Virus record (IMG/VR): IMGVR_UViG_3300020185_000003
Source of the DNA: a virus
Length of the DNA: 59,833 bases
Direction: 5' to 3' (one strand)
Below the pieces are notes generated by a model that was not told the origin of the DNA, searched no databases, and saw nothing but the letters and a program-made list of their open reading frames with translations. The position numbers and the translations under genes were made by a program. Positions 2,670 through 49,715 of the stretch are shown here, piece by piece (within the stretch, counting starts at the first letter, position 1; the number at the start of each line of letters is the position of its first letter).

Positions 2670-4899
2670 TACCCTGTATAGAGTTTTACATAATTATGTA
2701 CAACCAACCGTCCTCGCTAATAAAAACAAAGCGAAGAGTTGGACCTATGGCTATGATTTTAAAAATGACCTTATCGTAATATCTAAAGATGGAACCGTTG
2801 GTGAAGTTATTGAGATTGAAGGATTAAAAATAGGACTACCAATTGCTCCAAAGGAGTGTCTTCAAAGACACAAAAAAAAAGAGGAGCAGTATTGGGAACG
2901 TGTTGAAATCCCAAACGAGTTAAATAAAATTCAAACAATATTTCAATGGAACGAAAAGCCTTCTGAATTCAAGGACAGATGGGTGGACTATATTGAGGAA
3001 GAGTTTGACAGGAGGGAGAATGGGGTATGGTTTATGAATAATGGAACCCCAACATATATAACAGGGTCTCATTATATGTACCTTCAATGGACAAGCATTG
3101 ATGTTGGATACCCGGATTATCGTGAAGCCAATAGAATCCTGTATATACATTGGGAGGCTTGTAAGGCTGACAGTAGAAGTTTTGGACAGATATATCTAAA
3201 GATTAGACGTTCAGGATTTTCATTTATGTCTTCATCAGAGTGTGTAAACACAGGAACTCTTGCGAAAGATGCAAGGGTTGGCATCTTGTCAAAGACAGGT
3301 GCTGATGCTAAGAAGATGTTTACGGATAAGGTTGTTCCAATTAATAGCCGATTACCATTTTTCTTTAAACCGATTATGGATGGTATGGACAAACCTAAAA
3401 CTGAATTAGCGTTTAGGATTCCTGCGGCAAAAATTACAAAAAAGAATATGTACAATGCAGACAACAATGAGTTGTATGGATTGGATACCACTATAGATTG
3501 GAAGAATACAGACGACAACAGTTATGATGGTGAGAAGTTGTTGTTATTGGTTCACGATGAAAGTGGAAAGTGGATTAAACCAAATAACATTCAAAACAAT
3601 TGGCGAGTAACAAAAACTTGTTTGCGTTTAGGTAGTAAGATTATAGGTAAGTGTATGATGGGTTCCACCTCTAATGCGTTAGCAAAAGGTGGTGACAACT
3701 TTAAACAACTTTATGAGGACTCTAATGCGTTAAAGAGAAACTCAAATGGTCAAACCAAAAGCGGTATGTATTCTCTTTTCATTCCTATGGAATGGAATAT
3801 GGAAGGATTTATTGACAGGTATGGTATGCCCGTGATGCATAAGCCCACCAATAACCCCATAATTGGAGTTGATGGTGGGAATATCCATCAAGGTGCAGTT
3901 GACTATTGGGAGAACGAGGTTGAGTCTTTAAAGAACGATGCCGATGCACTTAATGAATTCTACCGTCAGTTTCCTCGCACAACGTCTCACGCTTTCCGTG
4001 ACGAAAGCAAGATGTCATTGTTCAATCTGACTAAGATATATCAGCAGATAGACTACAATGATTCATTAATAAAAGAACACCATATGACTCGTGGGTCTTT
4101 TTCTTGGAAGGATGGTATAAAAGATTCAAAGGTTATTTTTAGTCCAAACAATAACGGAAGGTTTTCGATTGGTTGGAATCCAAAAGCACATCTTCAGAAT
4201 AATATAATTATAAGGAATGGTATTAAGTACCCGGGGAATGAGCACATAGGTGCATTCGGATGTGACAGTTATGATATTTCGGGTGTTGTTGGCGGTGGGG
4301 GTTCTAATGGTGCTCTTCACGGATTAACTACATATCATATGGAAGAAGCACCTGTCAATACTTTTTTCTTAGAATATATTGCTCGTCCTCAAACCGCAGA
4401 GATATTTTACGAAGAGGTTCTTATGGCTTGTGTATTTTATGGTATGCCAATTCTAATCGAGAACAACAAACCTCGTTTGCTTTACCATTTTAAAAATAGA
4501 GGCTACAGAGGGTTCTGTATGAATAGACCTGATAAAGCATATACAAACCTGTCAAAAACAGAAAAAGAACTCGGAGGTATTCCGAATACGAGTGAAGATA
4601 TTAAACAGGCACACGCTGCTGCAATAGAATCTTATATTGAAAAATATGTTGGCTTAGACTTAGATGGAAGTTATAGAGATATGGGGGATATGGGAGATAT
4701 GATTTTTACCCGAACCTTGGAAGATTGGGCAAGGTTTGATATATCGAACAGAACCAAGCACGATGCCTCTATTAGTTCAGGGTTGGCTATTATGGCAACT
4801 CAGAAGGCTATGTATTTAAGCGAGAAAAAACAATCAAAAATAAAGATTAACTTTGCAAGGTATAGTAATAAAGGAACAATAAGCGAAATTATTAGATGA
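2647..4899 (+). CDS. terL: terminase large subunit
   Basis: 750 aa. It has a Walker-B-like LLLLVHDESGKW, a coupling-like MMGSTSN, and nuclease-like acidic motifs (GAFGCDSYD, ILIENN). It lies directly upstream of the portal-scaffold-capsid order. The Walker A motif is deviant (KIRRSGFS). Confidence 0.65.
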   Translation: MQKEGQDSTLYRVLHNYVQPTVLANKNKAKSWTYGYDFKNDLIVISKDGTVGEVIEIEGLKIGLPIAPKECLQRHKKKEEQYWERVEIPNELNKIQTIFQWNEKPSEFKDRWVDYIEEEFDRRENGVWFMNNGTPTYITGSHYMYLQWTSIDVGYPDYREANRILYIHWEACKADSRSFGQIYLKIRRSGFSFMSSSECVNTGTLAKDARVGILSKTGADAKKMFTDKVVPINSRLPFFFKPIMDGMDKPKTELAFRIPAAKITKKNMYNADNNELYGLDTTIDWKNTDDNSYDGEKLLLLVHDESGKWIKPNNIQNNWRVTKTCLRLGSKIIGKCMMGSTSNALAKGGDNFKQLYEDSNALKRNSNGQTKSGMYSLFIPMEWNMEGFIDRYGMPVMHKPTNNPIIGVDGGNIHQGAVDYWENEVESLKNDADALNEFYRQFPRTTSHAFRDESKMSLFNLTKIYQQIDYNDSLIKEHHMTRGSFSWKDGIKDSKVIFSPNNNGRFSIGWNPKAHLQNNIIIRNGIKYPGNEHIGAFGCDSYDISGVVGGGGSNGALHGLTTYHMEEAPVNTFFLEYIARPQTAEIFYEEVLMACVFYGMPILIENNKPRLLYHFKNRGYRGFCMNRPDKAYTNLSKTEKELGGIPNTSEDIKQAHAAAIESYIEKYVGLDLDGSYRDMGDMGDMIFTRTLEDWARFDISNRTKHDASISSGLAIMATQKAMYLSEKKQSKIKINFARYSNKGTISEIIR
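2856..2871. repeat. PAL16 copy A (GTGTCTTCAAAGACAC, exact)
   Basis: Lies inside the terminase CDS and is read as E-CLQRH. Confidence 0.95.
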
Positions 4900-31544: not shown

Positions 31545-31832
31545 CTATTCTTTTTTATCTATGGTTGCAAGAAATGCATTGCCCATAGGTGGGTCTATTT
31601 TTTTTATTAATGTATAGATTCTTTTAGAGTTTCTTTTAACCTGCTCTCTTTCTTTGTTGGTGGAGTCCTTGCCGAGATTACAATACATAAAGCAATCAAT
31701 CTTCAGCAGTTCATCGGTCTTCTGCTTGGTAGTCCAAGTTTTGAATTCCGCAATCTTATCTATGTCGTTGATGTTATAGCCCATTGTACATTCGATTAAT
31801 TGCCCATTTAACTTCTTCTTCAGTTCCGACAT
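31545..31832 (-). CDS. hypothetical protein
   Basis: 95-aa ORF. It overlaps the upstream gene by 59 nt, and an alternative ATG at 31784 is possible. Confidence 0.5.
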   Translation of the reverse strand: MSELKKKLNGQLIECTMGYNINDIDKIAEFKTWTTKQKTDELLKIDCFMYCNLGKDSTNKEREQVKRNSKRIYTLIKKIDPPMGNAFLATIDKKE

Positions 31833-32328
31833 TGGTTCTTTGTTCTACTATCTTATAGATTTCACCAAGTCTTTGTCTGTTAGAGATGACGGATTTTAAT
31901 TGTCCTTCAATTTCTATAATTTTCAAAGATAGCGATTTGTTTTCTTTACGCAAAAGAATTAGTTCTTTTTTTAGTTCATCTTCTGACAAATATAATTGGT
32001 CAGTTATATCTCCATCGAATGAGTTCTTGATTTCAGTATAAGACCTGCGTAGTTCAGGGTCAGACATCAGGTAGTTGTCAAAGTTTTTTACGTAATGTAT
32101 TATAGTTGCGTGATGTTTTACCATAGCCCTGCCAATACTACTATAACCCCAACCTCCCTTATGTAGGATGTGAGCGTATATCATACGGGCGTTTACTATG
32201 TGTCTGCGTCTCGACTTTGCGGTTTTTACGTCAACACCTAACACTACTCTGATTATATCACGAAGGTGTTGTGTTGGATTCAATACTGTTTCGTCCATTT
32301 CTATATTGTTTGATTGTATTTGATTCAT
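31774..32328 (-). CDS. DnaA domain-IV-like HTH DNA-binding protein
   Basis: KSRRRHIVNARMIYAHILHKGGWGYSSIGRAMVKHHATIIHYVKNF follows the DnaA C-terminal pattern (SR..IV.AR....YL......IG......H.T..H). Confidence 0.65.
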   Translation of the reverse strand: MNQIQSNNIEMDETVLNPTQHLRDIIRVVLGVDVKTAKSRRRHIVNARMIYAHILHKGGWGYSSIGRAMVKHHATIIHYVKNFDNYLMSDPELRRSYTEIKNSFDGDITDQLYLSEDELKKELILLRKENKSLSLKIIEIEGQLKSVISNRQRLGEIYKIVEQRTNVGTEEEVKWAINRMYNGL

Positions 32329-39876: not shown

Positions 39877-40294
39877 TTTGATTTGATTTTAATTTATTTA
39901 ATTTAATTGTCATCTCTGTGTACTTCTCAAGGATATTTTGCCTTGTGGATTGGTAATAATCGAGTTGCTTCTGAGATGGGTTCGGCTTCTCGTTGACGTG
40001 CTTCTTAATCTGTCGCTCAATTCTGTCGAGTTTTGCACGATAGTTAGACAAAGATATAACATATATTCCATATCTCCAACCACCATCGTGAAATAAATTT
40101 ATATGTTCCTGATTTAGAGAGTGATAAAAATCTCCCGACTTCGCAGTATTCAACAGTTGTATTTGAGAGGTCTCGTTGTCTTTGACAATCTTTATCCCGT
40201 ACAAAAGATAGGACTCGTATCCATTCCCGTGAAGAGGAGATGAAGATGAGTCGTCAGATGCCTGAATAAAGATGTCGTTTAAACTGTAACGCAC
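39845..40294 (-). CDS. hypothetical protein
   Basis: 149-aa ORF. Confidence 0.55.
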   Translation of the reverse strand: MRYSLNDIFIQASDDSSSSPLHGNGYESYLLYGIKIVKDNETSQIQLLNTAKSGDFYHSLNQEHINLFHDGGWRYGIYVISLSNYRAKLDRIERQIKKHVNEKPNPSQKQLDYYQSTRQNILEKYTEMTIKLNKLKSNQNGEHKTTNDI

Positions 40295-40581
40295 GACTTC
40301 ATTTGTTTAATAGTTTTCCTATAGTCTCCGTCTACCTGCAAACGTTCTTTCACCTGATTGATTCCGTAGATAATAGATGAATGGTTAATGAGATACCCCT
40401 TGCTAAACATATACTCTTGGATATAAACGATTCGCATTGGTCGTTCACTGCACATATAGTATAGAAGGTAACGTGCGTCTACAATGTCTCTTCGTTTACT
40501 CTTAGTGAAAAGTAGTTCTTCGCTGATACCGAACAGGTCGGCACATTGAGTTGCGTATTCATTGAAAATATTTAGTTTCAT
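40279..40581 (-). CDS. DnaA domain-IV-like HTH DNA-binding protein (second paralogue)
   Basis: FTKSKRRDIVDARYLLYYMCSERPMRIVYIQEYM...NHSSIIYGINQVKERL. Confidence 0.6.
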   Translation of the reverse strand: MKLNIFNEYATQCADLFGISEELLFTKSKRRDIVDARYLLYYMCSERPMRIVYIQEYMFSKGYLINHSSIIYGINQVKERLQVDGDYRKTIKQMKSCVTV

Positions 40582-42681: not shown

Positions 42682-43761
42682 TTAGTTAAACAATGCTACT
42701 TCGTTATCTGTGAACCAACCGCCACACGCACTGCAGTGGTAGTGGTTAAACCCATCGTACTCCAAGTCAGAGAAACAATCAATGCAGGATGGCTTCTCTA
42801 CATAAACCTCTTCCCTCTCATTAAAGACCTCATCGAAATAAGAAAGTTGTGTGCATTCTTTTTGTGTCTTTGAAGACACTGTCTTGGACTTGGATAGTGT
42901 AAAAGATTTTGGAATGGGCTTCTGAAGAAATGTCTTGTGCATTACCTCCCCACTTCTGATTTGTTTTGGGTTAAAGTATATCCACGCAGTAACTTCTTTA
43001 CCCTGTATGACAACCTGAATCTGCTCACGCTTGTACCATCTCGGATGACCCTCAAGGATATCTAACTTCGCTAAGGTAGAGTCACTTACTTTGAATACGT
43101 CTACCGCCACGTTGTGTCCCACTCCCTTTTGATTTACCAAGAAAGGTAAACCGTTAACGATTAACGGATACTTATCCTTAGTCTTGCCTGAGCCAACAAA
43201 GTCAGAGTTGTAAAGGTGACCGTAGTAGTTGCTATAACCTTTCTTCAATGTTCCGTACACTGCAACCACGTTGTCAAGTAGGACGTTGTCTTTTGAGAAC
43301 CACACGCCATCTCTGTTGGTGTACAGGTGACGATTGTATATCTGATACGATTTGGTCTTGGTGTTGACGCTAACAAACCTGCACTCATACTTCTCAAGTT
43401 CAGTTTTCCATTGGTCTCTTGGCATATCACCTAACATCTCAGCAAGTACCTTGCTATCTGTCTTGTTGTCGTTGCCCAACCCTTTGATGGTTCCGTTCAT
43501 CATCAGCAGTTCGTCTGTGTTCTTACCGCACACAAATGGATGTGTGTTCGCTCGGTTAATCTTACCGACAGTTGCGTATCTGAAATGCGCAATGTATGGT
43601 CGGTCAGTTAATAGTTTCTTGTACTCTTTAGAGTCGTGATAGGTTACCTCAAAGGTGTCCAACCAAACAATGCCCAACCCATCAGGATTGACAGTTGATG
43701 ATTTCTTTAGGACTTCTTGCGATACCTTGCGACCTCTTTGTTTAATGATGATTACACACAT
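42682..43761 (-). CDS. fusion protein: class-II (Ntn, Cys2) glutamine-amidotransferase-like amidohydrolase + AIG2/GGACT-like gamma-glutamyl(amine) cyclotransferase + C-terminal Zn-ribbon
   Basis: N-terminus: MCVIII..NPDGLGIVW..AHFRYATVGKINRANTHPFV..LMMNGTI (YafJ/EgtC-like pattern with the Cys2 nucleophile). Middle: VAVYGTLKKGYSNY...LDILEGHPRWYKRE (AIG2/GGCT pattern). C-terminus: CIDCFSDLEYDGFNHYHCSACGGWF. Confidence 0.75.
   Translation of the reverse strand: MCVIIIKQRGRKVSQEVLKKSSTVNPDGLGIVWLDTFEVTYHDSKEYKKLLTDRPYIAHFRYATVGKINRANTHPFVCGKNTDELLMMNGTIKGLGNDNKTDSKVLAEMLGDMPRDQWKTELEKYECRFVSVNTKTKSYQIYNRHLYTNRDGVWFSKDNVLLDNVVAVYGTLKKGYSNYYGHLYNSDFVGSGKTKDKYPLIVNGLPFLVNQKGVGHNVAVDVFKVSDSTLAKLDILEGHPRWYKREQIQVVIQGKEVTAWIYFNPKQIRSGEVMHKTFLQKPIPKSFTLSKSKTVSSKTQKECTQLSYFDEVFNEREEVYVEKPSCIDCFSDLEYDGFNHYHCSACGGWFTDNEVALFN
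42864..42879. repeat. PAL16 copy H (GTGTCTTTGAAGACAC, exact)
   Basis: Lies inside the GATase-GGCT CDS linker; the sense strand reads T-VSSKT-Q. Confidence 0.95.
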
Positions 43762-43789: not shown

Positions 43790-43797
43790 CAAAGATA
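43790..43797 (-). promoter_or_regulatory. -7 promoter box (sense AACTATCTTTGTAC)
   Basis: The complement is TATCTTTG, 28 nt upstream of ATG 43761. Confidence 0.6.
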
Positions 43798-44655: not shown

Positions 44656-44817
44656 TTATCGTGTTAATACTGCGGTTAATTTCTGACGTACTATCCAAGG
44701 ATACCTTGATATGTTGTCGTTGAACACTCGGTCAATGGCTTCCCATTTTGAATGTGCAGAGATATTGCAGATATCTTTACCTGCATATCTCACCTTGTAG
44801 TACTGCTTACTTTCCAT
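44656..44817 (-). CDS. small hypothetical protein (53 aa)
   Basis: Hand-translated as MESKQYYKVRYAGKDICNISAHSKWEAIDRVFNDNISRYPWIVRQKLTAVLTR. It fills an otherwise empty 160-nt gap, and its start overlaps the upstream stop by 11 nt. Confidence 0.5.
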   Translation of the reverse strand: MESKQYYKVRYAGKDICNISAHSKWEAIDRVFNDNISRYPWIVRQKLTAVLTR

Positions 44818-45001
44818 CTTTTGCGAACATTAGAACTCCTGCTAAATACAACAGGGTTAAGGTGAACAAACTCACAATACACGTTGAAATAAAATGTGGT
44901 ACGGAACTTACGTCTTGGAATAACGCCAAGATGAAACGACCTGCGTTGAATGTTACTACTGCCAACATTAACGCCATTAAAACTTTGCTTACTTTTTTCA
45001 T
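44807..45001 (-). CDS. small two-TM membrane protein
   Basis: 64 aa with two hydrophobic helices (VLMALMLAVVTF, IVSLFTLTLLYLAGVLMF). It is the first gene downstream of the hammerhead. Confidence 0.6.
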   Translation of the reverse strand: MKKVSKVLMALMLAVVTFNAGRFILALFQDVSSVPHFISTCIVSLFTLTLLYLAGVLMFAKDGK

Positions 45002-45022
45002 TTTGATTTTATTTTATTAGTT

Positions 45023-45075
45023 TCCTGTTTCGTCCTTTGGGACTCATCAGCACAGGCACTCACCTGTGGACAGGA
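45023..45075 (-). ncRNA. hammerhead self-cleaving ribozyme, stem III open (type III)
   Basis: The minus RNA reads UCCUGUC|CACAGG-UGAGUG-CCUGUG-CUGAUGA-GUCC-CAAA-GGAC-GAA-ACAGGA. The complete invariant core is present, along with a GUC cleavage triplet, the A15.1:U16.1 and G10.1:C11.1 pairs, and three perfectly paired stems. Confidence 0.85.
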
Positions 45076-45080
45076 GGATA

Positions 45081-45096
45081 GTGTCCTTGAAGACAC
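45081..45096. repeat. PAL16 copy J (GTGTCCTTGAAGACAC, one mismatch; sense strand same variant as copy D)
   Basis: Intergenic. The stem extends to 12 bp (45076..45101) and directly abuts the hammerhead. Confidence 0.9.
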
Positions 45097-45109
45097 TACC
45101 CTGCTTTTT

Positions 45110-46024
45110 TTAATATCTCCTTGGCGCAGGAGTCTCGGTGAATCCTAACCACCCTTTGATATCCTCGGTCACCTTGCCTGTCTTGATATACTTTTGGAAT
45201 GATACTGCCAAGGTCATTATCTCGTTCACCTTGTCTTGGTTTCTGTCGTACATCGCCATCAGGATTGGTTCTGCCTTCTTCAAGAAAGTCTTGAAATTTC
45301 CGTTTGGATTGTTTACGCTGAAATCAACCAATTCATACATCATCTCGTATCTGCGCATCATCTGTTTTACTGATTGGAATCGGGCAGGAAGACGAAATTC
45401 AATCACGCTACCTTTGTTTAAGCATACGTGATACTTGTTTGAATTGCCTACAGGTAATCCTGCCCAATCTTCTCTATTCTCCTGCATACGGATATTGAAA
45501 CGGCAGTAAGGATTTTGCAATCTGTGACGATACATTGCGTACAGGATGCCTGAATTTTTGCGTACTAAATTCATCAATTCACTACCATCCATCCCTTCTA
45601 CGGCAAGAGAAATGTGTCCGCCACATCGCTTGTCTGATGGGCTATTGGCATCCTCAATAATTCTCTTTGCTTTGTGCATCATATCGTAGACCTTGTTGCG
45701 CCATACTGATGCAGGTAGCAAAGGTAGGATGTTGGTCACTGCTTCGTATCCGCAAGAACCATCACGCTCAAATCCGCAAAGCAATTCGTATTCTCTTACT
45801 GCTCCACGAGATAATTGGTTTTTCTCAATCTCCATTCCGATTGTGAAACGTGAATTGAAATCCGAACCTACCTGCACCAAATTGCGCTTATCAGAATTTT
45901 TCAATTGGGCAATGTCCGAAGATTTTGCACCTTTCTGCATCTCACGAAATTCAGGTTTTCTGTGGTAGTGTTGAACTACTGCTCTGTCTGAGCGATTTTC
46001 GATTTTGTAGATGATACCTTCCAT
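45110..46024 (-). CDS. amidoligase (glutamine-synthetase-like fold, Amidoligase_2-type)
   Basis: TIGMEIEKN, GFERDGSCGYEAVTNILP, CGGHISLAVEG, NPYCRFN and GSVIEFRLPA follow the family motif order as I recall it. Confidence 0.7.
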   Translation of the reverse strand: MEGIIYKIENRSDRAVVQHYHRKPEFREMQKGAKSSDIAQLKNSDKRNLVQVGSDFNSRFTIGMEIEKNQLSRGAVREYELLCGFERDGSCGYEAVTNILPLLPASVWRNKVYDMMHKAKRIIEDANSPSDKRCGGHISLAVEGMDGSELMNLVRKNSGILYAMYRHRLQNPYCRFNIRMQENREDWAGLPVGNSNKYHVCLNKGSVIEFRLPARFQSVKQMMRRYEMMYELVDFSVNNPNGNFKTFLKKAEPILMAMYDRNQDKVNEIMTLAVSFQKYIKTGKVTEDIKGWLGFTETPAPRRY

Positions 46025-46057
46025 TTTATTTAATTTTAGTGTTTATGATTTTTTTAG

Positions 46058-46103
46058 TGGGCAGTAAGGATTCGAACCTTATGTGTCACCGACTGACCTA
46101 CCC
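46058..46103 (-). ncRNA. tRNA-like element (acceptor stem + D-like arm + T arm, no anticodon arm)
   Basis: The minus RNA reads GGGUAG-GUC-AGUCGGU-GAC-ACA-UAAGG-UUCGAAU-CCUUA-CUGCCC-A. It has a 6-bp acceptor stem (one G.U pair), a canonical T arm and loop, and a D-like loop with GG. Confidence 0.6.
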
Positions 46104-46105
46104 TT

Positions 46106-46121
46106 GTGTCTTTGAAGACAC
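46106..46121. repeat. PAL16 copy K (GTGTCTTTGAAGACAC, exact)
   Basis: Intergenic, 3 nt after stop 46125 and 2 nt before the tRNA-like element (minus sense). Confidence 0.95.
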
Positions 46122-46124
46122 TTT

Positions 46125-46769
46125 TTACATTCCCATTGATGATTGAAGAAACGCAATTGCTTGAGCAATTTCTGAAGCATCGTTTCGGGTAATCAATTCG
46201 CCATTGGCATTGATGCGGACTGCAATGTTTCGTCCTTCGGGATTCTTCATTGACATTGTGAAGATTGTCTCAACACGTTCCTGTACTTCTGCTGACTCAA
46301 TTGCTTCCTCAGAAATCTCCTCTTCTCCTGTCTCCTCGTTGATGATTGTTTCAACGTCATTGAAATCCTGTGCGAATTTCAACAGACCTGCTAAACTTCT
46401 GTCAACGTCTTTGCCTTGGGCATCTGCTTCGTCACATTTGGTATTGAATGCATCGACAATTTGCTCTGACAATTTCCCTGCTTTAAGTACTTTGTAGAAG
46501 AAAGACTTCTGCCATCCGAAGACCTTTTGACCGAATTCCTCTTTGCTCCACGATAATCCTGCATCCTGCATTTTGAATTTACCTTCCTCAGAAGTGAACC
46601 ATTGTTCTGCTTTTACGACCAATTTTGCCATATTCAAAGTATGACCGAATTTGCTCTTGTGAGCATTGGTAATTTGTCTTTGAATGCGTTTGATGTCATT
46701 CAAGTTTAATGCATTCTTGATTTCTGATTGTGAAAGGAATGCCGTTTCGATTGATAAAAGATTGCTCAT
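46125..46769 (-). CDS. hypothetical early protein (first gene of the leftward block)
   Basis: 214-aa ORF. No motif was recognised. Confidence 0.65.
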   Translation of the reverse strand: MSNLLSIETAFLSQSEIKNALNLNDIKRIQRQITNAHKSKFGHTLNMAKLVVKAEQWFTSEEGKFKMQDAGLSWSKEEFGQKVFGWQKSFFYKVLKAGKLSEQIVDAFNTKCDEADAQGKDVDRSLAGLLKFAQDFNDVETIINEETGEEEISEEAIESAEVQERVETIFTMSMKNPEGRNIAVRINANGELITRNDASEIAQAIAFLQSSMGM

Positions 46770-46850: not shown

Positions 46851-46858
46851 CAAATATA
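46851..46858 (-). promoter_or_regulatory. -7 promoter box (sense ACTATATTTGAAC), probable leftward early promoter
   Basis: The complement is TATATTTG, 81 nt upstream of ATG 46769. Confidence 0.55.
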
Positions 46859-46911
46859 GTCTAATTTACTTAATATACAATAGGTGTGTTCATTTTTTTT
46901 TCAATTCCCTG

Positions 46912-46963: not shown

Positions 46964-46979
46964 GTGTCTTCAAAGACAC
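46964..46979. repeat. PAL16 copy L (GTGTCTTCAAAGACAC, exact)
   Basis: Lies between the divergent promoter boxes (46851 minus, 47336 plus), apparently outside both transcription units. Confidence 0.95.
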
Positions 46980-46995
46980 TTTTGTTTTGATTGTG

Positions 46996-47035
46996 GACAG
47001 GAACGCACACAGGAAGACAGGAACGCACACAGGAA
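46996..47035. repeat. perfect tandem 20-mer x2 (GACAGGAACGCACACAGGAA)
   Basis: 46996..47015 equals 47016..47035. Confidence 0.95.
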
Positions 47036-47036
47036 C

Positions 47037-47054
47037 GAATGCTTTGCCGCATTC
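47037..47054. repeat. inverted repeat GAATGC-TTTGCC-GCATTC
   Basis: Read directly from the sequence. Confidence 0.7.
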
Positions 47055-47080
47055 ATTCTCTGTTGCTCTTTGATTGCGTA

Positions 47081-47189
47081 CGGGAACGGGAACGGGGACA
47101 GGCGGAACGGGAACGGGAACAGGGGAACAGGGGACACAGGACGCAGGACGGATGCAGGCAGGACGCAGGACGCAGGCAGGCAGGTAGGT
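47081..47189. repeat. GC-rich, almost T-free tract of degenerate short tandem repeats (CGGGAA, CAGGGGAA, CGCAGGA, CAGG) with many G3-4 runs
   Basis: Only two T in about 109 nt of the plus strand. The composition contrasts sharply with the AT-rich genome. Confidence 0.9.
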
Positions 47190-47758: not shown

Positions 47759-47759
47759 G

Positions 47760-47833
47760 TACTCCCTATAGGATTCGAACCTATAACCTATACATTAGAA
47801 GTGTATTGCACTATCCTATTGTGCTAAGGGAGT
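47760..47833 (-). tRNA. tRNA-Arg: tRNA-Arg (anticodon UCU)
   Basis: The complement folds as a canonical 74-nt cloverleaf: acceptor ACTCCCT/AGGGAGT, D arm GCAC-AATAGGATA-GTGC, anticodon arm ATACA-CTTCTAA-TGTAT, variable AGGTT, T arm ATAGG-TTCGAAT-CCTAT, discriminator A. CCA is not encoded. Confidence 0.9.
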
Positions 47834-48113: not shown

Positions 48114-49715
48114 ATGTCTGAATTAGGATTCACTCCAAAGAACCTCACCTTTGATGACAAGGGTAGAAAAAAATTATTTAAAGGGATAGAGGCTATTGCC
48201 TCAGCAGTAAAGTCAACTCTCGGACCTTCCGGTCAGACGGTTCTTATCGAATCACCACATCACACGCACGGCATCACAGTAACCAAGGACGGTGTTACGG
48301 TTGCCAAGGCGGTAGACCTATTAGACCCTGTCGAGAACCTTGCGGTTCGGATGATGAAGGAAGCGGCAGACCGCACGGCATCGCAAGCAGGTGATGGAAC
48401 GACCACGGCTATTGTACTTACAGAGGCTATTGTAAAAGCAGGATTTGAGGACATCGTTGATGGTGTAAATAAAACTCAAGTACTAAGAGACCTTGTTACG
48501 GAAACCAATAAGGTAGTTAAGTCACTAAAAAAACATTCACGCAAAGTGTCAGGGCGCACCCTTCGGGATGTAGCCATCATCTCAACAAACAACGACCCGC
48601 AACTCGGAACAACAATTGCTAACGTATACAACCGTGTTGGTAAGAATGGTATAGTTACCATCTCCAAGTCTCAAACATCAGACACTTACTTTGAGACAAC
48701 AAATGGATTGAAAGTAGAACGAGGATATACCTCACCACTATTCATCAACGACCATAAGAAAGATGAGTGTGTCTTTGAAGACACTTACATCCTTGTGAGT
48801 GATGCAGAGATTAGCAACCTACTATCTATCGAGAACGTATTGAAACCAATCATTAATGACGGCAAGAAGTTGCTTGTCATTGCACCGTGTTCTCAAAACG
48901 TAATCAACACATTGGCTGCTAACGTAATGAAAAACAATCTAAAGTTCTGTGCTATCACTCCGCCAAACTTCGGATATAAACAACACGAACTAATGCAAGA
49001 CATTGCTCTTGCGGTTGGGGCTACCTACTTCTCCGAGAAGACAGGAGACGACCTCAGCATTATGACATTCGATGACTTGGGTCACGCTGCCAAGGTGATA
49101 GTTGGTCGTGACTCTACCGTCATCGTTAAAGACTCAGATGAAATATCTGAACAAGTTAAAGAGCGAGTAGAGCAATTGTGGGATGCCCACGCTAACACTC
49201 CAAAGAAAGTAGACAAGGAATTTATCTTGTCAAGAATCGCCTCCCTCACAGGGGGAGTTGGGGTTATCTATGTAGGTGGCAACACAGACCTTGAGCAGAA
49301 GGAATTGTATGACCGTGTCGATGATGCGGTGTGTGCAGTTCGCTCAGCACTCGAAGAAGGTATCCTACCGGGGGGAGGCATCGCATTATTTAAGGAATCG
49401 TTGGTAGGGTTTTTTGACCAACCTGACGAGGAGAACATTGCTCGAAAGATATTGTTCAAAGCACTACGTGCTCCTCTTATGCAAATTTGGCATAATGCAG
49501 GTATTGAGGAAAGTAAAGACGGGCTTGAGTCTCACTACGATTTTGGATACAATGTCAAAACACAGGAGTGGGGAGATATGTATAAGATGGGAGTTATCGA
49601 CCCATTGAAGGTTACCAAGTCTGCTCTTCAGAATGCAGTGTCTGTTGCGGTAACTATTCTTTCGACTAATGCTATCATAACAATGGCTCGAACTTATGAG
49701 GACCAAAATTCTTGA
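48114..49715 (+). CDS. groL: GroEL-type chaperonin (Cpn60)
   Basis: 533 aa with TLGPSGQTVLIE, VTKDGVTVAK, AGDGTTTAIVL, GYTSPLFIN and ILPGGGIAL. It is collinear with bacterial GroEL. The C-terminus lacks the GGM tail. Confidence 0.9.
   Translation: MSELGFTPKNLTFDDKGRKKLFKGIEAIASAVKSTLGPSGQTVLIESPHHTHGITVTKDGVTVAKAVDLLDPVENLAVRMMKEAADRTASQAGDGTTTAIVLTEAIVKAGFEDIVDGVNKTQVLRDLVTETNKVVKSLKKHSRKVSGRTLRDVAIISTNNDPQLGTTIANVYNRVGKNGIVTISKSQTSDTYFETTNGLKVERGYTSPLFINDHKKDECVFEDTYILVSDAEISNLLSIENVLKPIINDGKKLLVIAPCSQNVINTLAANVMKNNLKFCAITPPNFGYKQHELMQDIALAVGATYFSEKTGDDLSIMTFDDLGHAAKVIVGRDSTVIVKDSDEISEQVKERVEQLWDAHANTPKKVDKEFILSRIASLTGGVGVIYVGGNTDLEQKELYDRVDDAVCAVRSALEEGILPGGGIALFKESLVGFFDQPDEENIARKILFKALRAPLMQIWHNAGIEESKDGLESHYDFGYNVKTQEWGDMYKMGVIDPLKVTKSALQNAVSVAVTILSTNAIITMARTYEDQNS
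48769..48784. repeat. PAL16 copy M (GTGTCTTTGAAGACAC, exact)
   Basis: Lies inside the GroEL CDS and is read as C-VFEDT-Y, at the position equivalent to E. coli GAVELESPF. Confidence 0.95.

Follow-up and report, generated by a model that had tools for sequence, protein, structure and literature searches.

We describe here two consecutive gene junctions in IMG/VR virus record IMGVR_UViG_3300020185_000003, at each of which a stop codon is followed by a conserved 16-nucleotide (nt) hairpin, PAL16, and then by one of two unrelated cleavage signals, a minimal mimic of transfer RNA (tRNA) or a hammerhead ribozyme. The whole stretch of DNA analyzed (the window) is 59,833 nt long, and all coordinates are those of this stretch. 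We take it to be nearly a whole genome, since the exact protein encoded between the two junctions occurs on at least 24 metagenome contigs (ENA and JGI assemblies), most of them of ~60 kb. The features of both junctions lie on the minus strand and are given below in the direction of transcription, together with the three genes that they separate.

46125..46769, minus strand: gene A, a 214-amino-acid open reading frame (ORF) of unassigned function and the first gene of the operon, with its TAA stop at 46125-46127 (from the ORF list)
46106..46121, minus strand: PAL16 copy K (GTGTCTTCAAAGACAC), in RNA GUGUCU-UCAA-AGACAC, a 6-bp stem with a 4-nt loop, 3 nt past the gene A stop
46058..46103, minus strand: mini tRNA mimic of type A, 46 nt, without an anticodon arm (from the minimum-free-energy fold)
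45110..46024, minus strand: gene B, a 304-amino-acid ORF between the two modules, with its ATG at 46024 and TAA at 45110-45112
45076..45101, minus strand: extended 26-nt hairpin of 11-12 bp (from the fold) whose core is PAL16 copy J (45081-45096, GTGTCTTCAAGGACAC), adjoining stem III of the hammerhead with zero spacer
45023..45075, minus strand: type III hammerhead (Rfam RF00008)
44807..45001, minus strand: gene C, a 64-amino-acid ORF, hydrophobic by eye, with its ATG at 45001, which would lead the downstream cleavage product

Both layouts had been proposed at these positions in an earlier reading made from the letters and ORFs without database searches (the sequence-only reading), and every element was found again by sequence, fold, and Rfam comparison. 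In junction 1, the gene A TAA is followed by AAA, PAL16 copy K, AA, the 46-nt element, a 33-nt A-rich leader, and the gene B ATG. The mimic consists of a 6-bp acceptor stem (GGGUAG/CUGCCC, including one G·U pair) with a discriminator A, a 4-bp hairpin resembling a D arm (GUCA-GUCGG-UGAC), and a 5-bp T stem closed by the canonical loop UUCGAAU. This structure is the minimum-free-energy fold of the junction in RNAfold (z = -3.75), and none of 200 shuffled sequences folds as well. A canonical tRNA gene at 46058-46103 was considered and rejected: ARAGORN made no call, and the Rfam tRNA model (RF00005) was silent at E <= 10 in a 1.4-kb search. The element was therefore handled as a structural mimic rather than as a tRNA gene. 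Its 6 + 5 bp acceptor/T stack, canonical T loop, and covarying stems are those of a t-element or minihelix, and its position, past the gene A stop and ahead of the gene B ATG, is a messenger RNA (mRNA) boundary; relatives carry mimics at junctions 0 to 3. RNase P is predicted to cut between A46104 and G46103, and a cut by RNase Z after A46058 is possible. Further upstream, Hammerhead_1 gives a weak match within gene A (46213-46256; 15 bits, E = 4.4), which we attribute to chance in view of its mismatched core.

Junction 2 runs from the gene B stop (45110-45112) through 8 nt to the hairpin at 45076-45101 and directly (0 nt) into the hammerhead, which is followed by 21 nt and the gene C ATG. The ribozyme comprises stem III (45070-45075 paired with 45023-45028), C17 at 45069, stem I (45051-45068), the CUGAUGA core (45044-45050), stem II (45032-45043), and GAA (45029-45031), and it is classed as type III because stem III is open. 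All catalytic positions are consensus (CUGAUGA, GAA, A15.1-U16.1, and C17). The three stems form in the minimum-free-energy structure (z = -4.59; 0 of 200 shuffles as good), and an end-to-end match to Rfam Hammerhead_3 (45022-45076) reaches 47.1 bits, with E = 7e-9 locally and 3e-7 for the whole window. Self-cleavage is predicted between C45069 and C45068; this site and that of RNase P in junction 1 are the ones that the sequence-only reading had named. In the whole window there is a single hammerhead and a single tRNA mimic of this kind. By our own arithmetic, each has a chance of ~0.0026 of starting 10 nt or less downstream of any of 28 oriented PAL16 sites, and the joint chance is ~7e-6.

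Neither hairpin looks like a sense-strand intrinsic terminator, as PAL16 K leads into AAGGG and PAL16 J into the ribozyme, rather than into a U-tract. Nor do they resemble RNase III hairpins of the T7 type (roughly 20 bp or more), the stems being 6 bp (K) and 11-12 bp (J). A Bacteroidota-type motif scan placed one candidate promoter ahead of gene A:

46851..46881 (~46858), minus strand: promoter candidate of the Bacteroidota type, TTG-N19-TATATTTG, ~80 nt before gene A (motif scan with a consensus from the literature)

The next such motif in noncoding DNA of the same strand lies at 43797, with zero in either junction, and a scan for sigma-70 promoters and terminators found neither on the sense strand of either junction. 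Since no promoter-like or sense terminator-like site separates the genes, the operon (genes A, B, and C, and on to ~43804, ~3 kb) would be transcribed leftward as one RNA from the promoter near 46858. Read on the plus strand, PAL16 J and K (45079-45098 and 46106-46121) are each a hairpin followed by a T-run; both were flagged as terminator-like and might stop antisense transcription.

Relatives were gathered by protein-based searches of IMG/VR, which gave 3 + 29 loci, most from contigs of 35-65 kb, with identities of 39-63% for gene A and 45-83% for gene B. Pattern searches added 5 viral and 14 metagenomic loci, and one further contig was binned with a Cytophagales metagenome-assembled genome (MAG). 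Homologues of gene A come from 29 loci (39-63% identity) and those of gene B from more than 50 (37-94%), and gene C is kept in loci L003, L047, and L054-56. The isolate-phage collection yielded no cultured relative, only the tRNA-Arg of the window matching at the DNA level, and the modules are absent from the region inspected of a distant GenBank relative (MW202828.1). The gene leaders lack Shine-Dalgarno sequences and are A/C-rich; together with the Cytophagales MAG match, they weakly suggest Bacteroidota as hosts of the phage family, whose members are freshwater and marine phages of roughly 60 kb.

Scanned for the core motif, most relatives have 2-4 hammerheads in a 6.6-kb locus, and every one lies at a gene junction, on the coding strand. 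There are 39 distinct type III sequences, and in 37 a perfect hairpin of at least 7 bp ends 3-11 nt before the predicted cleavage site (33 within 3-7 nt); such a hairpin is present at 5.4% of random positions in the same loci. PAL16 forms the core of 28 of the linked hairpins. In the rest, G/C-rich stems of unrelated sequence take its place (GGGAGGGCAAATTGCCCTCC and CCGGGGGCTTCGGCTCCCGG, for example), which implies that a hairpin as such is required. The bases flanking PAL16 vary among copies yet stay complementary (GGGA..UCCC, GGCG..UGCC, CU..AG), as expected if the helix forms, and the extended hairpin of junction 2 is identical in L003 and L047. When the 39 sequences are aligned, the catalytic core shows no variation and pairing extends to 98% of cells, a figure that is partly circular given the pairing filter by which the set was chosen. 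Double-sided changes escape this circularity: 12 of 15 pairs have changed on both sides (155 cells), a level reached by 0 of 500 shuffles, with slid controls pairing at 38-47%. Loop nucleotides are conserved as well (U13 and G14 in loop 1, A's in loop 2). Five further hammerheads are of type I and have a closed hairpin stem III 1 nt from the cut, so that a hairpin would again be 3'-terminal after cleavage; at junction 1 of L022, this stem III is PAL16 itself. Only one match across 20 loci bearing several dozen hammerheads passes the Rfam gathering score. With scores lying just under the cut-off, routine annotation would overlook nearly all hammerheads of the family.

Two further observations concern these ribozymes. 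After the gene B homologue, L006 (~4745), L023, L025, and L041 carry CUGAUGA-UUCC...GGA-UGAAAC, with U at both 10.1 (for G) and 11.1 (for C); such variants, with a mismatch adjacent to the core, may be slow, regulated, or inactive. In many relatives, another conserved hairpin, AAACCGGAGGUUUGAAACCCUCC, stands between the hammerhead and the next start codon (for example L007 4606-4635, L005, L010, L011, L013, and L015); it is absent from the window. Much like the hairpin of synthetic RiboJ, it would give the downstream product a capped or structured 5' end.

Could the motifs be inactive relics or chance look-alikes? The window hammerhead falls below the Rfam gathering score, tRNA finders leave the mimic uncalled, and some relatives have the possibly inactive U10.1/U11.1 variant, but a perfect consensus core, extensive covariation, a placement conserved over dozens of lineages, and the low joint probability of adjacency in the window make this explanation very improbable.

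The tight coupling bears on another alternative, namely, that cleavage is real while the hairpin serves as a folding insulator against upstream coding RNA or the terminating ribosome, or as a pause or termination signal, including an antisense terminator. The hairpin adjoins stem III at 0-2 nt, and in the cases at distance 3 its 3' strand overlaps stem III, as would suit a part in folding. Moreover, the stop codon lies only 3-16 nt upstream, so that a terminating ribosome would reach the hairpin, and the antisense strands of J and K are terminator-like. An upstream insulator would not be expected, however, to be left 3'-terminal by type I hammerheads as well, which is what a cap predicts, and junctions with only a hairpin are common. 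We regard the alternative as unlikely as a replacement for capping, noting that the insulator and cap roles are compatible and not mutually exclusive.

Mimics of the junction 1 type were sought as PAL16 followed within 40 nt by GTTCGAWTC. All 19 loci retrieved place the T-loop in a T stem stacked on an acceptor stem, and none is a normal tRNA, as judged by inspection of the folds. A covariance model (R1) built from mimics of type B, in which a single strand with conserved (A/U)UGG stands in place of the D-like hairpin, detected five further copies not selected via PAL16, and a separate T-arm scan supplied the junction 2 copy of L017. Four of these six copies lie at most 4 nt after a hairpin: L017 4682, L048 386, and L046 2031 stand ~2 nt after non-PAL16 hairpins, and L037 2638 stands 4 nt after PAL16. 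L037 1900 follows a hairpin at 13 nt, and L037 3612 has no upstream hairpin, PAL16 following it instead. L037 has four mimics and zero hammerheads in 3.4 kb. The distinct mini tRNA mimics number ~22; they occupy gene junctions, mostly 0-5 nt after the hairpin, and measure mostly 39-46 nt, with one copy of 61 nt. In 16 of 17 folded individually, the T and acceptor stems total 11-13 bp; the acceptor/T stack of tRNA is 12 bp. All keep a GG ~8-11 nt upstream of the T stem.

R1 does not detect the element of the window, which is of type A, the form with a D-like hairpin found in the window, L051, L047, L042, and L049; type A was therefore analyzed separately. These five sequences pair at 100%, and 5 of 15 pairs show compensatory changes (UAAGG/CCUUA to UUAGG/CCUAA and CAAAG/CUUUG; GGGUAG/CUGCCC to AGGUAG/CUACCU) that span lineages with 58% gene B identity.

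Such elements invite comparison with true tRNA genes, one of which lies upstream of the operon:

47759..47833, minus strand: genuine tRNA-Arg(UCU), upstream of the operon, CCA not encoded

After its discriminator A, the trailer of this gene reads CAAAAAAA, which resembles the trailer of the mimic, CUAAAAAA. The mimic might be no processing signal at all, being instead a decaying tRNA gene, an attP-type fragment, a small RNA with a function of its own (such as a decoy for tRNA-binding defense or modification enzymes), or a translational element of gene B. Its tRNA-typical D-loop and T-loop sequences, the real tRNA gene 1.7 kb away, and the fact that tRNA remnants are common in phages speak for this view, as does the consideration that excision by RNases P and Z would free a 46-nt RNA able to act in trans. 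This view is at odds, however, with compensatory changes that keep both stems across lineages of only 58% gene B identity and with ~22 different sequences that hold the 11-13-bp geometry and the GG and T-loop elements. Nor would it account for placement at gene junctions, mostly 0-5 nt after a hairpin, in exchange for hammerheads at orthologous junctions. The idea of an att core or shared tRNA fragment was rejected: an exact search with the 3' half of the mimic (T arm and acceptor strand) gave 0 matches in 2.9 million viral contigs, and no integrase was found among the ~35 larger ORFs scanned. On balance, a nonprocessing role for the mimic seems improbable to us.

Comparison of orthologous junctions shows that hammerhead and tRNA mimic are interchangeable across the phage family. 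After gene B, ~28 lineages have a hairpin and a type III hammerhead. In the same place, a tRNA mimic is found in L017, L048, L034, L046, L038, and L043, with a hairpin ahead of it in all cases for which upstream sequence is shown, and L037 has a mimic and then PAL16. L004 (4674-4740) combines PAL16 with a long hairpin, UACCAACCUCCUGUC-AGAAAC-GGCAGGGGG-AU-UUGGUGGUA, which matches no Rfam family at gathering score and could be another device or only a stabilizer. Between genes A and B, ~14 lineages have nothing and ~10 PAL16 alone; nine carry PAL16 and a mimic (the window, L051, L047, L042, L049, L017, L041, L048, and L037), L022 a type I hammerhead, and L036 one of type III. The layout of the window, with a mimic at junction 1 and a hammerhead at junction 2, recurs in L047, L042, L049, and L041.

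The observation at the heart of the sequence-only reading, two unrelated cleavage signals in the same place relative to the same hairpin, thus extends systematically to relatives through tight spacing, covariation, and swapping. The search of related genomes that it had recommended, for PAL16-like hairpins followed by a ribozyme or tRNA-like fold, returned the 39 type III hammerheads and ~22 mimics described above, mostly hairpin-linked. Its punctuation idea is supported by anatomy and comparison, but not in a gene-specific form. The system had been thought to bracket gene B in particular, whereas a relative bears 2-4 modules, spread over successive junctions, and junction 1 is empty in about half of the relatives; by this distribution, the modules are a family-wide toolkit not tied to gene B. 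The label "amidoligase" given to gene B is likewise unsupported, Pfam (at E <= 10) and PHROGs having yielded nothing relevant, and is left as unverified.

That the same junction is served in different lineages by a hammerhead or a mimic, always tied to a hairpin, points to one job, a defined, hairpin-capped mRNA end. From the structures, their conservation and covariation, the hairpin spacing, and the interchangeability, we infer cleavage, the enzymes responsible, and an effect on stability along the following lines. The single operon RNA would be cut at two modular marks, each made of a hairpin and a cutter. At junction 2, the hammerhead would fold and self-cleave after C45069. The last nucleotide of the gene B mRNA would then be C17, bearing a 2',3'-cyclic phosphate and joined by the 6-nt stretch UCCUGU to the 11-12-bp hairpin around PAL16, and the gene C mRNA would have a 5'-OH and open with the compact body of the ribozyme. 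The acceptor/T-arm minihelix of junction 1 (11 bp, UUCGAAU, and a D-loop-like GG) would be recognized by host RNase P, which would cut 5' of G46103 and leave a gene A mRNA ending in the PAL16 hairpin and AA-3'OH. The mimic would then stay on the 5' end of the gene B mRNA or be removed by RNase Z after A46058. End chemistry differs between the two routes, a hammerhead generating a 2',3'-cyclic phosphate and a 5'-OH and RNase P a 3'-OH and a 5'-phosphate. In both cases, the hairpin would be the 3'-terminal structure and would block 3'-to-5' exonucleases, which 3'-terminal hairpins are known to impede in bacterial mRNA decay. The stability, and hence the expression level, of neighboring cistrons would be uncoupled. 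A hairpin-capped 3' end of the upstream product, which the sequence-only reading also anticipated, is a direct consequence of this anatomy.

PAL16 itself is far more widespread than the two junctions. The window contains 14 copies, against 0.11 expected; J and K are the 10th and 11th, and they alone lead into a cleavage device.

Starts 2856, 9971, 18855, 30944, 33124, 38460, 40676, 42864, 44178, 46964, 48769, and 56463: the other 12 PAL16 copies, with no cleavage device

Rfam models run over the whole window with a cut-off of E <= 1 placed no ribozyme of another class beside these 12. Copies 9971 and 56463 lie within longer G/C stems, the former followed by a U-tract, and copy 46964 has a U-tract on the plus strand. 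At least 4 of the 14 are inside long ORFs: 33124 in a helicase gene and 48769 in a GroEL-like gene, both antisense, 42864 in a gene with glutamine amidotransferase (GATase) and GGACT matches, and 44178 in an SLT gene. PAL16 can hence not be described solely as a post-stop hairpin, as the sequence-only reading had it, given at least 4 of 14 copies within ORFs (2 antisense), one beside repeat arrays, and some with U-tracts. The canonical orientation nevertheless follows the coding strand at 10 of 14 window sites and at nearly all cutter-linked sites in relatives.

Two of these copies stand out. The copy at 48769-48784, in the chaperonin ORF 48114-49715, encodes CVFEDT and recurs at the equivalent position in relatives with ~50% protein identity (L004 728, L006 1049, L008 1036, L010 1079, L011 1073, L017 970, L023 1171, and L025 1288); its six synonymous sites are all fixed and the flanking codons vary, which points to selection on the nucleotide motif within the coding sequence. 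The L004 copy is that genome's own PAL16 variant, with C at position 6. Copy L (46964-47188 region) borders short, GC-rich tandem repeats, located ~200-400 nt before gene A and with units such as ACAGGAACGCAC, GGGAAC, and CAGGACG, and relatives pair PAL16 with repeats at the equivalent position. This repeat region may be a replication origin or a regulatory region.

These copies raise the question of whether PAL16 is mainly a DNA-level site, such as an operator or a replication or packaging site for a dimeric protein, which adjoins the devices only because all of them favor the few intergenic spacers. PAL16 is a nearly perfect palindrome, and variants with TTCGAA, TTTAAA, or CCTCGAGG centers are perfect ones; its copies face both ways, some within ORFs and some antisense to genes. 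The GroEL-like copy is positionally conserved with fixed synonymous sites, and one copy adjoins iteron-like repeats, with two proteins bearing DnaA-C-like helix-turn-helix (HTH) domains encoded nearby. A DNA site would not, however, require the fixed spacing to the cleavage site that contrasts with the 5.4% random control, nor flanks that lengthen the helix with covarying bases. Unrelated hairpins substitute for PAL16 before both hammerheads and mimics, PAL16 acts as stem III of a type I hammerhead, and its orientation follows the coding strand as described above. We judge a predominantly DNA-level function to be unlikely, while a DNA role beside the RNA role could exist. Together, the strict conservation of the core, the copies within ORFs, and the majority without a cutter suggest a sequence-specific partner, and PAL16, a multipurpose element, probably has such a binding partner too.

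Weighing this evidence, we favor, with moderate confidence, the interpretation that the operon RNA is cut at two modules of hairpin and cutter into hairpin-capped mRNAs, as modeled from sequence and folds. Several points weigh against it. The hammerhead score of 47.1 bits is 1.4 below the Rfam gathering score of 48.5, a shortfall attributable to the short loop 2; the loops as a whole are short (loop 2 is 4 nt), and activity at cellular Mg2+ is a prediction only. The partial circularity of the pairing percentage in relatives belongs here as well. The mimic has an acceptor of only 6 bp that includes a G·U pair, an A at position -1, and no 3' CCA, all of which bear on the expected efficiency of RNase P. 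L037 reverses the order at junction 2 (3609-3680): its mimic begins with the G of the UAG stop codon of the gene B homologue, so that RNase P, cutting at the predicted site, would split this codon, and PAL16 comes after the mimic. The public contigs with the exact gene B protein are ENA and JGI assemblies, mostly of ~60 kb, and yielded no transcript ends. Finally, no cutter accompanies 12 of 14 PAL16 copies in the window or 65 of 93 in an unbiased sample of relatives, and a simple exonuclease block would not need strict conservation of the PAL16 core sequence. With most copies lacking a cutter and at least four inside ORFs, capping a cleaved 3' end cannot be the only role of PAL16 and is perhaps not its main one.

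A broader reading can be offered more tentatively, and we lean somewhat against it: by analogy with the histone stem-loop and SLBP, PAL16 might be the constant part of a modular mRNA 3'-end code, read by a dedicated factor and combined with interchangeable cutters, namely, type III hammerheads, type I hammerheads with PAL16 as stem III, and minimal mimics recruiting host RNase P.

The ORFs scanned in the window gave no recognizable candidate for such a factor. Matches among the ~35 ORFs scanned were structural, replication, recombination, lysis, chaperonin, and GATase/GGACT, together with two DnaA-C-like HTH domains; no RNase, ligase, kinase, or recognizable RNA-binding protein was among them. 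The two HTH domains belong to small ORFs (31774-32328 and 40279-40581) resembling the DnaA C-terminal domain, both below the Pfam gathering score, and are the sole candidate sequence-specific DNA binders seen in the early region. Gene A matched no Pfam or PHROG family. The 359-amino-acid ORF at 42682-43761 has weak class-II glutamine amidotransferase matches and a clear GGACT/AIG2 gamma-glutamyl cyclotransferase domain, after which PAL16 copy 42864 lies in frame.

Hammerheads have been linked to phage transcripts before. Perreault et al. (2011; PMC3088659) reported clustered hammerheads that flank prophage genes and cut ~2-kb polycistronic transcripts in vitro, and they proposed processing into single-gene mRNAs. 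A 2019 review still listed the processing function of phage and bacterial hammerheads as unresolved, and their genomic role in these organisms has been an open question since 2011 (PMC3088659; PMC6765202). Several coding-strand hammerheads between the genes of one phage transcription unit are common to those prophages and to the family described here. The type III hammerheads of this family differ in being fused to an upstream hairpin at fixed spacing, usually with a 16-nt family-conserved core, in being exchangeable with a tRNA mimic, and in scoring mostly just below the Rfam threshold; the passages of PMC3088659 consulted mention neither hairpin coupling nor a tRNA-like alternative. The novelty claimed in the sequence-only reading must be narrowed to this extent: hammerhead processing of phage transcripts was already proposed in 2011, but hairpin coupling and the swap with a tRNA mimic appear undescribed in the papers searched. 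The full-text literature covered, which left most subscription journals outside, describes no unit of hairpin and hammerhead at fixed spacing, no family of minimal tRNA mimics in phage operons, and no substitution of one device for the other. The device swap makes the question of hammerhead function directly testable, and hammerheads lying just under the Rfam cut-off mark an annotation gap through which the whole system is routinely overlooked.

A tRNA punctuation model exists for mitochondrial transcripts. In plant mitochondria, tRNA-like t-elements mark mRNA ends (Forner et al. 2007, PMC1920247), and RNase P cleaves some bacterial operon mRNAs and phage RNAs (PMC11143913). The mitochondrial systems (PMC1920247) and the present one have in common tRNA-like folds between coding regions that act, or here would act, as cis signals for RNase P and/or RNase Z in defining mRNA ends. 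Here, by contrast, the setting is a phage operon with a presumed host RNA-based RNase P, the signal is a minimal acceptor/T-arm unit of 39-46 nt (one of 61 nt), and it comes with a protective hairpin and alternates with a self-cleaving ribozyme. If the broader reading offered above is correct, mitochondrial tRNA punctuation would have its first counterpart in a bacterial virus, which would also be a natural case of a ribozyme and a protein-assisted RNA enzyme replacing each other at one site. The minimal mimics, missed by tRNA and Rfam searches, would add to the natural substrates of RNase P a new class located in phage mRNAs.

Other systems resemble individual parts of this arrangement. MALAT1 and MEN-beta carry a protective structure just upstream of the tRNA-like mascRNA, and this structure becomes the 3' end upon cleavage by RNase P. 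They follow the same logic, but theirs is a eukaryotic, nuclear system with a triple helix rather than a simple stem-loop, and there is no sequence relationship. In T7 early mRNA, intergenic RNase III cuts leave a 3' stem-loop that stabilizes the upstream mRNA. There, the hairpin itself is the substrate, whereas here the hairpins are short (6-12 bp) and a ribozyme, or presumably RNase P, would cut beside them. Metazoan histone mRNA has a 16-nt stem-loop (6-bp stem, 4-nt loop) with an endonucleolytic cut a few nt downstream that forms the mature 3' end; it needs SLBP and the U7 small nuclear ribonucleoprotein, and the likeness of PAL16 is one of analogy only.

Synthetic biology separates cistrons and standardizes expression with parts of a comparable kind, including RiboJ (a hammerhead and a hairpin), Csy4 sites (PMC4604432), and polycistronic arrays of tRNA and guide RNA. 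The present modules could supply compact natural cistron-insulating parts for Bacteroidota and other bacteria, at ~80 nt for hairpin and ribozyme and ~65 nt for hairpin and mimic. Those earlier insulators are engineered, whereas the phage family described here would combine the same tricks in a natural system.

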